From UHGV virus genome UHGV-1366171: a stretch of DNA of 64,000 nt; one strand, given 5' to 3'. The notes beneath the pieces are model-generated. The model saw nothing but the letters and a program-made list of their open reading frames with translations, ran no database searches and was not told where the DNA came from. Shown here one piece after another: positions 10,204 to 11,388 of this stretch. Origin of the DNA: a virus. Numbering within the stretch: the first letter of the stretch is position 1; every line of letters starts with the position of its first letter. Both the position numbers and the translations under genes were made by a program.

Positions 10204-10502
10204 ATGTAACACAATATATAGTTTAAATCAGATTTATAATGCTATATATTGATTGTTACAATGTAAAAACAGGGTACACTTTGATTTTACAGTTAGATAT
10301 TGATTTATTTTTGTGCAATATGACAATAAAAATAGTGCTAAAGAATACGGCAGAGGGGAGCATTGACAGCTTGACAGATGGGACGGGGTCTAAAACAGAT
10401 CAGCCGCACCGCCCAAATGACCTCTAAATCCGCCCCAAAAAGAAAAAAGACCGTTTTAAGAATACTGGATTCCATTTTTCCCGAAAAATAAAAAAGAGCC
10501 TG

Positions 10503-10664
10503 TTATTTATCAACAGACTCAAGATACATTGCAATAGCTTTATCAAATAATTTGCTTAATGGTATTCCAGTTTTATCAGAATAATCCTTTAGTTTTTGAT
10601 ACAATTCCTTGTCAATGGCAGTAGATATAGCGGTTCTGTTTTTAAGACCTCTGTTTGTAGTCAT
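10503..10664 (-). CDS. ribbon-helix-helix regulator (paralog 1), 53 aa
   Basis: MTTNRGLKNRTAISTAIDKELYQKLKDY...; RBS AGGAGG; divergent from the serine recombinase. Confidence 0.6.
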   Translation of the reverse strand: MTTNRGLKNRTAISTAIDKELYQKLKDYSDKTGIPLSKLFDKAIAMYLESVDK

Positions 10665-10697
10665 AAGATACACCTCCTTTTGAAAAAAGTATATTAT

Positions 10698-10760
10698 ATC
10701 TTTCAATTTATTTCAATAAATACTTGATTTTATTTTCAAAAATGATATAATTGAAAGTAG
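10698..10760 (+). promoter_or_regulatory. promoter (TTGATT-N16-TATAAT) flanked by inverted repeat TCTTTCAAT / ATTGAAAGT
   Basis: operator-like IR flanking -35/-10; same architecture as 20776-20830. Confidence 0.5.
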
Positions 10761-10788
10761 TTGAAATAAACTTAAAGGAGATGTTTTT

Positions 10789-11388
10789 ATGAAGATTGGC
10801 TATGTCAGAGTATCAGCAGCAGACCAGAATGTGGCAAGGCAGATTAAAGCTATGCAGGAAGAAGGCGTGGAGAAAATATATATAGATAAGCAGTCAGGAA
10901 AAGACTTCAACCGTCCAGAGTACAAGAAAATGATTTCTAGCCTAAAACATGGAGATGTCCTTGTACTTCATTCAATAGACAGGCTTGGAAGAAACTACGA
11001 GGAAATTCTTGAACAATGGAGGATTATCACAAAAGAGATCAAGGCAGATGTAATTGTTCAAGATATGCCGCTCCTTAATACAACAATTTCAAGAGATTTG
11101 GACGGAACCTTTATAGCAGATTTGGTACTCCAGATATTATCTTATGTTTCTGCAAAAGAGCGTGACAACATAAAACGTAGACAGCGTGAGGGTATCGCCA
11201 TTGCGAAAACACAGGGGAAATACAAAGGGGGAAAATCGAAAAGGATTGACGAGCAATTATTTACTGAAAATCTTGTAAGATACAGAAATGGAGAAATTAC
11301 AAAGTTTCAATTTGCAGTAAATATTGGTGTATCAAGACCGACACTTGACAAAATTATTAAAGAACGGGAGGAAGCGAATAATGATTGA
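10789..11388 (+). CDS. small serine recombinase (resolvase/invertase family) with C-terminal HTH
   Basis: N-terminal catalytic MKIGYVRVSAADQ (Ser nucleophile), ...LDRLGRN..., C-terminal HTH IGVSRPTLDKIIK. Confidence 0.8.
   Translation: MKIGYVRVSAADQNVARQIKAMQEEGVEKIYIDKQSGKDFNRPEYKKMISSLKHGDVLVLHSIDRLGRNYEEILEQWRIITKEIKADVIVQDMPLLNTTISRDLDGTFIADLVLQILSYVSAKERDNIKRRQREGIAIAKTQGKYKGGKSKRIDEQLFTENLVRYRNGEITKFQFAVNIGVSRPTLDKIIKEREEANND

Follow-up and report, generated by a model that had tools for sequence, protein, structure and literature searches.

UHGV virus genome UHGV-1366171, analysed here as a stretch of 64,000 nucleotides (the window), is an AT-rich temperate phage genome encoding a tyrosine integrase, DnaC-/DnaD-like replication proteins, anti-repressors, a large terminase (TerL) and tail proteins; a megablast comparison of positions 8-25 kb with GenBank phages returned no match. 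The window carries two copies, 10,075 bp apart, of a DNA cassette in which a gene for a 53-aa Arc-like ribbon-helix-helix (RHH) protein, RHH1 in copy 1 and RHH2 in copy 2, is divergent to the gene that follows. The latter codes for a small serine recombinase in copy 1 and for the RNA-guided nuclease TnpB, accompanied by its guide RNA (reRNA), in copy 2 (Table 1). Comparison with related loci and with published homologous systems suggests that each copy is probably a self-contained, exchangeable regulatory cassette, in which the RHH protein would repress both its own gene and the gene downstream.

Both RHH proteins belong to the Pfam family RHH_3 (PF12651; 58.7 and 58.5 bits, cut-off 21.6, over residues 9-50) and match PHROG 3180, 'Arc-like repressor' (E about 5e-19); no NCBIfam model matches the RHH. 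They align without gaps at 38 of 53 positions (72% identity), in agreement with the roughly 70% given in a preliminary description of this DNA. A total of 176 homologues of RHH1 were found, many of them 53 aa long; because of this length, and because ATG 10664 lies behind a strong Shine-Dalgarno (SD) sequence, AAGGAGGTG (10671-10679), this codon was taken as the true start of RHH1, instead of the TTG at 10706 with which a mechanical list of open reading frames (ORFs) begins. The two genes differ by 18 synonymous and 15 non-synonymous codon changes, and both copies are therefore under purifying selection. The paralogues differ in residues of the beta-strand (T11/T15 in RHH1, I11/N15 in RHH2). 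A sequence search of the PDB with RHH1 gave nothing significant, the best hit being SvtR (E = 0.065).

The repeated DNA extends well beyond the RHH genes, spanning about 10494-10790 in copy 1 and 20568-20857 in copy 2, so that the approximately 300 bp of shared hairpin, ORF and promoter announced in the preliminary description were recovered by pairwise alignment. Identity amounts to 68% at the nucleotide level in the RHH ORF (z = 28.6 against shuffles), is higher in the intergenic DNA (10665-10788 versus 20740-20856; 75% over 109 aligned positions, z = 8.7) and drops to 65% in the terminator segment, where the signal is weak (z = 2.5). No similarity between the copies was found in the 100 bp beyond either cassette edge, and on one side it ends at the start codon of the downstream gene. 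At the other edge, the terminator stem has been altered on both sides and yet remains paired (GAGTCTGTT/AACAGGCTC in one copy, AAGTCCGTT/AACGGGCTT in the other); the stem of copy 1 overlaps the last codons and stop of RHH1, and homology to the sister phage locus L227 (labels of this kind denote fetched comparison loci) resumes just outside it. In both copies the promoter elements are bracketed by an inverted repeat, again as first described: CTTTCAAT (10700-10707) and ATTGAAAG (10750-10757) in copy 1, CTTTCAAC (20776-20783) and GTTGAAAG (20823-20830) in copy 2. The single base by which the repeats of the two copies differ is changed in both arms.

Promoters, boxes and operators are described here as motifs from consensus scans and comparative prediction. 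In copy 1, the predicted left operator overlaps the RHH1 promoter, its boxes being kept in homologous cassettes, and the right operator overlaps the -10 end and start-site region of the recombinase promoter. The exact tandem TTGAAA-N4-TTGAAA occurs twice in the 64-kb window, at 10701-16 (minus strand) and 10751-66 (plus strand), that is, in the two arms of copy 1. Six TTGAAA/TTTCAA hexamers lie in the 124 bp of intergenic DNA of this copy, against 0.22 expected (Poisson P about 1e-7), forming the densest such cluster in the window. Copy 2 has two back-to-back promoters that share one palindromic -35, with -10 elements TATAAT (minus strand, 20769-20764) and TATACT (plus strand, 20810-20815), both TG-extended and both at 17-nt spacers. 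Its boxes were located by a tandem-box match with one mismatch (20777-92) and by alignment with copy 1. In copy 1 and the cassettes closest to it, 12 bp are inserted, and the promoters have separate -35 hexamers that lie next to each other.

Table 1. Coordinates of the two cassettes, the genes joined to them and associated elements in the window; promoters and operators are predictions.
Feature	Position	Strand	Remarks
Conserved non-coding element, about 90 bp	10243..10335	.	30-bp imperfect palindrome TGT-N24-ACA (10262-10291) and invariant TTTGTGCAATATGAC
RHH1 intrinsic terminator, left edge of cassette 1	10486..10520	-	Stem 10520-10496, T-tail to 10486; terminator scan; counterpart in copy 2
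RHH1, 53-aa Arc-like ribbon-helix-helix protein	10503..10664	-	MTTNRGLKNRTAISTAIDKELY...; Pfam RHH_3 E = 5.5e-16; PHROG 3180 E = 6e-19
Predicted RHH1 promoter	10688..10716	-	-35 TTGAAA 10716-10711, 17-nt spacer, -10 TATACT 10693-10688; scan 10/12 matches
Predicted left operator, copy 1	10700..10717	.	CTTTCAAT tt ATTTCAAT; two 8-bp boxes 10 bp apart; minus strand reads TTGAAA-N4-TTGAAA
Predicted recombinase promoter	10724..10751	+	-35 TTGATT 10724-29, 16-nt spacer, TG-extended -10 TATAAT 10746-51; scan 10/12 plus TG
Predicted right operator, copy 1	10750..10767	.	ATTGAAAG ta GTTGAAAT; two boxes 10 bp apart; conserved in L001, L007, L081-L086
Small serine recombinase, resolvase/invertase (Sin/Bin3-like), 199 aa	10789..11388	+	Catalytic Ser9 in VRVSAADQ; SD AAAGGAG 10774-10780
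RHH2-TnpB-reRNA insertion, 1.8 kb	20565..22370	+	Relative to L115/L118; right edge approximate, between 22370 and 22401
RHH2 intrinsic terminator, at the left edge of both cassette 2 and the 1.8-kb insertion	20570..20596	-	Terminator scan; L115/L118 homology ends 20564
RHH2, 53-aa Arc-like RHH protein	20578..20739	-	MQENRGLKNRIAISNAIDKELY...; Pfam RHH_3 E = 6.4e-16; 72% identical to RHH1
Predicted back-to-back promoters, copy 2	20764..20815	.	Common palindromic -35 TTGCAA 20787-20792; promoter scan
Predicted operator boxes, copy 2	20776..20830	.	CTTTCAAC ta CTTGCAAT (20776-20793) and CTACAAGC a GTTGAAAG (20813-20830), inverted around promoters
TnpB RNA-guided nuclease, IS607 type, 399-aa ORF	20857..22056	+	ATG served by cassette SD AAAGGAA 20841-47; canonical start Met12 (20890)
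Guide RNA (reRNA) of TnpB	22102..22260	+	RAGATH-18 motif 22102-22176, scaffold to 22240, predicted 20-nt guide 22241-22260 (CCAAGCGTAAGCGGAGATTG)

The same arrangement recurs in other phages. We fetched 80 viral (IMG/VR) loci coding for RHH homologues 51-83% identical, and in about 75 of them the RHH gene is alone on its strand and lies opposite the start of its neighbour, 85-125 bp away. After removal of redundancy, 43 neighbours were classified with Pfam and PHROGs: 11 are TnpB, 14 belong to the HNH endonuclease family phrog_374 and one is a resolvase, the remainder being mostly HNH/NUMOD, GIY-YIG and LAGLIDADG homing endonucleases, with about two that are neither nuclease nor recombinase. 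The intergenic DNA is conserved among cassettes joined to unrelated nuclease genes. A metagenomic RHH 87% identical to RHH1 (P0006) faces a resolvase of 191-199 aa in all eight contexts recovered. Contigs of bacterial genomes, mostly Lachnospiraceae and Clostridium, added two further serine recombinases and more TnpBs beside an RHH, and on Clostridium botulinum plasmids RHHs of 60% identity (WP_075144826.1, WP_013720785.1) face TnpB, in units placed between tail genes or between cas7 and cas5b. The search for this RHH beside tnpB or serine recombinases that the preliminary description had proposed was therefore positive in the viral loci, in the eight metagenomic contexts and on the C. botulinum plasmids. 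As side observations, on C. botulinum BKT015925 plasmid p1 (L226, NC_015417.1 22591-23980) the RHH and TnpB unit splits cas7 from cas5b of a type I-B CRISPR operon, and a comparable unit at L225 has the Dit gene on one side and a gene for a tail protein on the other.

The predicted control elements follow a common plan. In 34 of the 43 non-redundant cassettes one palindromic hexamer, usually TTGCAA, lies exactly 17 bp from a -10 on each strand, and the divergent promoters of these cassettes are therefore predicted to share a single -35, the layout also found in copy 2. Between and around these promoter elements, the motif varies across the 43 cassettes with the beta-strand class of the RHH. 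The strand RTAIST goes with (A/G)TTGAAA(T/G) boxes, and R(I/V)AISN with GTAGTTGAA, boxes of this form being common to all RHHs of that class. RTAISNAV is accompanied by AACTAC..GTAGTT, RTP.SN mostly by GTCCTTGGAC (GTCC..GGAC), RV.PNS by GTCAATTGAC and RTPIGS by AACTGATATCAGTT. This co-variation of strand and putative operator is as direct readout by the RHH strand predicts.

The gene joined to copy 1 codes for a small serine recombinase, with an N-terminal catalytic domain (Pfam Resolvase PF00239, residues 3-145, E = 4.6e-28; PHROG 125) with Ser9, a length of 199 aa and a C-terminal DNA-binding domain. Bin3/Sin (PDB 2r0q_C) was the best aligned structure (E = 2.5e-33), and the alignment with gamma-delta and Tn3 resolvases runs from end to end (3-192), including the C-terminal DNA-binding domain. 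With the IS607 transposase model NF033518 (cut-off 110 bits), in contrast, the score is 21.3 bits and the alignment does not begin before profile position 57; the recombinase therefore lacks an N-terminal MerR-like domain. No inverted repeats of at least 22 nt flank the recombinase in a scan across the window, the top match being the similarity of the terminators alone, and no segment in opposite orientation was present among the related loci; a reading as a Gin/Hin-type invertase is disfavoured on both counts. As a separate observation, a 153-aa ORF (11381-11842), without Pfam, PHROG or NCBIfam match, overlaps the recombinase stop in an ATGA-type coupling; many relatives keep a homologue with the recombinase (about 50% at the amino acid level), and in others it is replaced by a pair of RHH_1 and Bro-N/ANT genes.

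Recombinase homologues of 73-95% identity occupy the same position in many phages of the group, including phages without the TnpB unit (contigs _099198, _110775 and _071452 carry the recombinase and have no TnpB at terL). In these phages the divergent regulator of the recombinase is a helix-turn-helix (HTH) protein of 63-77 aa, and a survey of this HTH family found the recombinase as divergent neighbour in 78 of 80 loci. The exchange can be seen most closely in a sister phage (contig _143266; L227/L024/L244), whose two flanks match the window at about 97% identity and whose recombinase is 95% identical. An HTH cassette separates the matching parts, which end precisely at ATG 10789 of the recombinase and, on the other side, near the terminator. 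Comparison of these relatives indicates that the recombinase is a conserved gene of the phage group whose usual HTH regulator was displaced by the RHH cassette. The type of regulator does not follow the phylogeny of the recombinase, since an HTH-paired recombinase (L228) is 90% identical to RHH-paired ones (L081/L082) and the same RHH is joined at L086 to a recombinase of only 43% identity; cassette and gene body therefore appear to recombine independently.

The gene joined to copy 2 is a TnpB with an intact nuclease site. It scores 312.8 bits against the NCBIfam model guided_TnpB (NF040570, cut-off 100), and from residue 12 onwards it aligns with PDB 8iaz_A (E = 8e-169), labelled 'Transposase' in the search output, which we take to be the ISFba1 IS607 TnpB although the output itself does not say so. 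The RuvC D-E-D residues (IDLG, EDLN, DRDYNA) are conserved relative to 8iaz_A. Homologues are mostly 388-392 aa long, and the cassette-served ATG at 20857 adds 11 N-terminal residues to the protein. The RNA downstream matches RAGATH-18 (Rfam RF03064, 62.2 bits against a gathering score of 44.9), which places it among IS607-type guide RNAs.

Relatives of this TnpB that have no RHH (L195/L198, 86% identical in amino acids) are 84% identical in nucleotides to the window from 20847/20855 to 22240. The right limit is the end of the scaffold, and the predicted guide is therefore 22241-22260; the left limit, 20847-55, is where the similarity between copies 1 and 2 stops. Directly upstream of TnpB, these relatives retain the 3' part of an IS607 tnpA (matching positions 124-182 of the 187 in the transposase profile, E = 1e-20), and its position at the cassette junction argues that the RHH cassette replaced tnpA. 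The usual IS607 layout, with tnpA beside or overlapping tnpB, is accordingly absent, the RHH cassette sitting in the tnpA position. A left end and a transposon-associated motif could not be defined: the left junction GGGAGGAAAA is AG-rich but differs from both AGGAG and GAGGG, and the empty site has it too. As a side observation, the RHH-less relatives L195, L196 and L198 (6044-7138) lie in contigs of phage size, and about 1.9 kb downstream of them these contigs encode another TnpB, of a different kind and 364 aa long.

The boundaries of the RHH2-TnpB unit were given by the empty site of L115/L118, in which homology to the window ends at 20564 and resumes at about 22370-22401, with the orf20292 homologue 64 bp ahead of the region that precedes terL. 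For 80 phages whose TerL is 76-80% identical, 4.5 kb of DNA on the upstream side of terL was fetched, and neither RHH nor TnpB was found in it; the closer relatives L024 and L199 (93-96% nucleotide identity) have the same unit. As judged across these relatives, the RHH2-TnpB unit is a sporadic insertion just upstream of terL. A single 12-kb insertion between the terS-like orf9574 and terL, bounded by both cassettes, was considered and dropped, the recombinase and TnpB blocks being distributed independently among relatives. With mismatches allowed, the guide (22241-22260) matched only the element's own copies in the window and the loci fetched up to then; exact scans of viral_contigs (16 nt) and metagenome_contigs (18 nt), in which host genomes were not included, gave self copies and chance matches in unrelated high-GC contigs. 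The empty site in L115 does not match the guide either, and the guide may be a relic. Separately, the distance between the orf20011 homologue and terL ranges from 64 bp to about 3.9 kb among the 80 related phages (L115-L194; 20295-22421 in the window), and the junction upstream of terL looks like a general hotspot for inserted genes.

The anatomy of the cassettes, their homology, their module boundaries and their genomic associations are direct observations, and their interpretation draws on published work. Zedaveinyte et al. (2023, preprint, PMC10690162) described an Arc-like RHH ORF in IStrons, hundreds of whose homologues adjoin mobile elements, among them TnpB and homing endonucleases. Using chromatin immunoprecipitation sequencing (ChIP-seq), red fluorescent protein reporters and mutagenesis, Moon, Zedaveinyte, Wiegand and Sternberg (bioRxiv, 28 Sep 2026, 10.64898/2026.09.24.754181; Moon et al. 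2026) placed an IS605-family Arc on the bidirectional arc/tnpA-tnpB promoter, where the -35 and -10 are overlapped by motifs in opposite orientation; repression of the tnpB promoter by Arc needs both beta-strand residues and the motif, and recombinases and homing endonucleases are among the Arc neighbours. The mechanism proposed for the window is taken from this study. Each cassette of about 300 bp would have three parts, namely a terminator, a gene coding for an Arc-like RHH repressor of 53 aa and a control region of 117-124 bp, the latter with two predicted divergent sigma-A-type promoters and a ribosome-binding site for whichever gene is joined. RHH dimers would bind to TTGAAA-type boxes of 8 bp at a spacing of 10 bp. 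One pair of boxes covers the RHH's own promoter, and an inverted pair covers the outward promoter at its -10 and around the start site, so that the repressor would shut off both the RHH gene and the downstream gene. Copy 1 would control a Sin/Bin3-like resolvase-type recombinase, and copy 2 an intact IS607-type TnpB with a RAGATH-18-derived guide RNA. DNA binding, repression and timing are, in this scheme, either carried over from the published homologous Arc proteins or inferred by us. Part of the preliminary description, that a paralogous repressor controls both genes, is retained in that the two loci hold copies of one cassette, each divergent to its gene, and is amended in that there are two different paralogues, one per gene, whose boxes also differ somewhat.

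This regulatory interpretation is well supported by comparison and by the published experiments on homologous systems. Several points nevertheless weigh against it. Binding and repression by RHH1 and RHH2 are predicted, on promoters and boxes that are themselves consensus or comparative predictions. An AlphaFold2 (AF2) monomer model (pLDDT 84) has the two helices and renders the N-terminal strand as a helix, thus not reproducing it, and the seven Foldseek matches of this model, all RHH proteins, are not significant (all E > 3). Copy 1 departs from the common layout in its 12-bp insertion, its separate -35 elements and the weaker prediction of its own promoter. The relationship between strand and operator has an exception in L045, which is of the RTP.SN class and has AACTAC..GTAGTT, and it is confounded by shared ancestry, the tally having been made without a tree. 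The likeness to the Arc proteins of Moon et al. 2026 (WP_094548610.1, WP_003367503.1) is one of architecture, the C. botulinum RHHs, at 60%, being the nearest proxy in sequence. Finally, that the genes would be expressed in a brief burst on entry of the phage DNA into a repressor-free cell, and kept at a low level afterwards, is pure conjecture on our part.

Different scenarios might explain the association of these RHH proteins with their neighbours. The RHHs could be antitoxin-like inhibitors that bind the nuclease or recombinase protein, instead of acting mainly at the level of DNA. Archaeal RHH/MazE-TnpB pairs have been proposed, from co-folding models, to be toxin-antitoxin systems (Altae-Tran et al. 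2023), Moon et al. 2026 mention a proposed Arc-TnpB-RNA interaction, and RHH1 has a weak Pfam match to the CcdA antitoxin (E = 0.008, below the cut-off). However, the 53 aa amount to the RHH fold alone (Pfam residues 9-50), with no C-terminal toxin-binding tail, and the genes are divergent and not co-transcribed, at variance with type II toxin-antitoxin systems. Near-identical RHHs moreover partner unrelated enzymes (HNH, GIY-YIG, LAGLIDADG, TnpB and serine recombinases), the same recombinase occurs also with an HTH regulator, and the D-E-D residues of this TnpB are canonical, unlike those of the archaeal clade. We consider an antitoxin-like role unlikely.

Resolvase genes (Tn3/gamma-delta, Sin) classically adjoin a res site that overlaps their own promoter. 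The boxes of copy 1, four in number and arranged as two inverted pairs, might on this precedent be binding sites of the serine recombinase, res-like and autoregulatory as in Tn3 and Sin, and not RHH operators. This is improbable: the same boxes are found in HNH and TnpB cassettes without a recombinase (L001, L007, L024), the boxes vary with the RHH strand, and the L227 recombinase, at 95% identity, has an entirely different upstream region. A better candidate for such a site is a conserved non-coding element at 10243-10335. Its sequence (…AATGTAAAAACAGGGTACACTTTGATTTTACA…TTTGTGCAATATGAC) is present once in the window, and the 96 fetched loci that contain the motif are without exception recombinase loci, whereas none of 80 terL loci or 26 genome loci has it. 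It always lies between the orf9574-like gene and the pair of regulator and recombinase; homology between phages ends at 10332 and is followed by a variable slot of 0-1.3 kb, and the sister phage L227 is without the element. No res site was evident directly upstream of the recombinase gene, the candidate element being 450 bp away, past the regulator gene. A reading of the element as a sigma-A promoter was rejected, as no acceptable -35/-10 pair occurs on either strand, and the element could be either a res-like recombination site or a pac-like one.

The RHHs might also be ordinary regulators of the phage life cycle, like Arc/Mnt of the immI region of P22, with incidental neighbours, as the PHROG name 'Arc-like repressor' and the presence of anti-repressors in a temperate phage would suggest. 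This is very improbable, given that in about 75 of 80 loci the RHH gene and a gene for a nuclease or recombinase stand head-to-head at a fixed spacing, that neither copy adjoins the anti-repressor genes (51-54 kb) and that the tandem boxes occur nowhere else in the window. Lastly, the suggestion of the preliminary description that recombinase and TnpB are the two halves of one IS607-like element (serine TnpA and TnpB), kept 10 kb apart and co-regulated by paralogous repressors, is hardly tenable. In its favour, the TnpB is truly of IS607 type (a RAGATH-18 reRNA, of a kind that co-occurs with IS607 TnpBs according to Ren et al. 2024 (PMC11061315), and E = 8e-169 to 8iaz_A), the TnpA of IS607 belongs to the serine recombinases, and both genes are preceded by a cassette of one kind. 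The recombinase of the window, however, is Sin/Bin3-like, scores 21 bits against the IS607 cut-off of 110 without a MerR-like N-terminal part and is conserved, normally with an HTH partner, in relatives without TnpB, and the RHH-less TnpB relatives keep their own tnpA remnant directly upstream, the RHH2-TnpB unit being a separate 1.8-kb insertion.

Returning to the cassette as a regulatory unit, a further and rather doubtful step would be to regard the cassette itself, and not the nuclease gene, as the mobile unit, joined repeatedly, and precisely at the start codon, to unrelated selfish or conserved phage genes, with the pairs of strand and operator constituting orthogonal specificity classes. 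If that were true, orthogonal classes would let several cassettes coexist in one genome, as both do here, and would amount to a natural RHH recognition code. In the collected loci the module is delimited to the base by the terminator and, at its opposite edge, by the start codon. These loci extend Arc-type control of TnpB past the IS605 elements of bacterial chromosomes, as in gut phages the same cassette would serve an IS607-type TnpB, all classical families of homing endonucleases and a conserved resolvase-type recombinase. The natural variants of repressor and operator, together with the exchange of RHH for HTH in near-identical phages, offer material for tests of selfish-nuclease silencing and for orthogonal repressor-promoter parts. 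In annotation, a gene for a 53-aa RHH facing a nuclease gene in a phage late operon may be used as a marker of an inserted selfish gene.

Other features of the window were noted in passing. A 49-nt direct repeat (7306-7354 and 8116-8164, 78% identical) contains near-consensus promoter elements (TTGAC(T/A)…TATAAT…AGGG) and is probably a duplicated early promoter with its leader. A Ro60/TROVE-like protein (DUF2828 and DUF7788; PHROG 850, 'RNA-binding protein') is encoded at 12537-13991, amid phage tRNA genes located at 12114-12188, 17743-17833, 18055-18128, 18465-18536 and 19026-19101. An additional match to the Rfam tRNA model (18188-18270, 48.7 bits), without an ARAGORN call, might be a tRNA-like or Y-RNA-like partner.

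Among known systems, the recombinase shares with the Sin, Bin3 and beta resolvases the catalytic domain (2r0q_C, E = 2.5e-33), a length of about 200 aa and the order of an N-terminal catalytic and a C-terminal DNA-binding part, and differs from them in having no evident res directly upstream and a separate divergent repressor, either HTH or RHH. The RHH proteins have in common with Omega (pSM19035), CopG, Arc/Mnt of P22 and MetJ the RHH family, short direct or inverted boxes over promoters and an autoregulatory layout, whereas sequence similarity to them is not significant (best PDB hit SvtR, E = 0.065). The boxes differ as well, being 8 bp long at a 10-bp register in the window, contiguous 7-bp heptads in omega and contiguous 8-bp boxes in MetJ, and unlike the classical RHH repressors the cassette is attached to many different selfish genes.

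RAGATH-18 is the core of the IS607 TnpB guide RNA, and the RuvC residues of ISFba1 TnpB and the anatomy of its reRNA are known (Ren et al. 2024, PMC11061315). By comparison with this protein, the TnpB of the window has the same intact RuvC D-E-D and a RAGATH-18 motif 46 nt after the stop codon, and the scaffold continues beyond the motif for about 64 nt before the guide, versus about 50 nt in ISFba1. It differs in having no TnpA and no recognisable left end, in the 11-aa N-terminal extension from the cassette junction, in a 20-nt guide without match in the searched collections and in its predicted RHH-controlled promoter.

The closest parallel is with the Arc repressors of Moon et al. 2026 and Zedaveinyte et al. 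2023. Control of TnpB and other selfish nucleases by Arc-type repressors is already known, and the window is a clear further example of it, not a new kind of system. In both, a small RHH gene stands by itself and diverges from tnpB, two promoters oppose each other, motifs in opposite orientation lie at the -35 and -10, and close homologues adjoin TnpB, homing endonucleases and recombinases. The window differs in its IS607-type TnpB with a RAGATH-18 reRNA and no tnpA, the cassette having apparently replaced it, and in its phage host with two paralogous cassettes, one of which would drive a conserved resolvase-type phage gene instead of a transposase. Some features go slightly beyond the published systems, as far as sequence comparison can indicate: the cassette is modular with base precision, it has taken the place of an HTH cassette beside a conserved gene of the phage and of tnpA in an IS607 derivative, a -35 shared by the two promoters is predicted, and strand and operator form putative classes.

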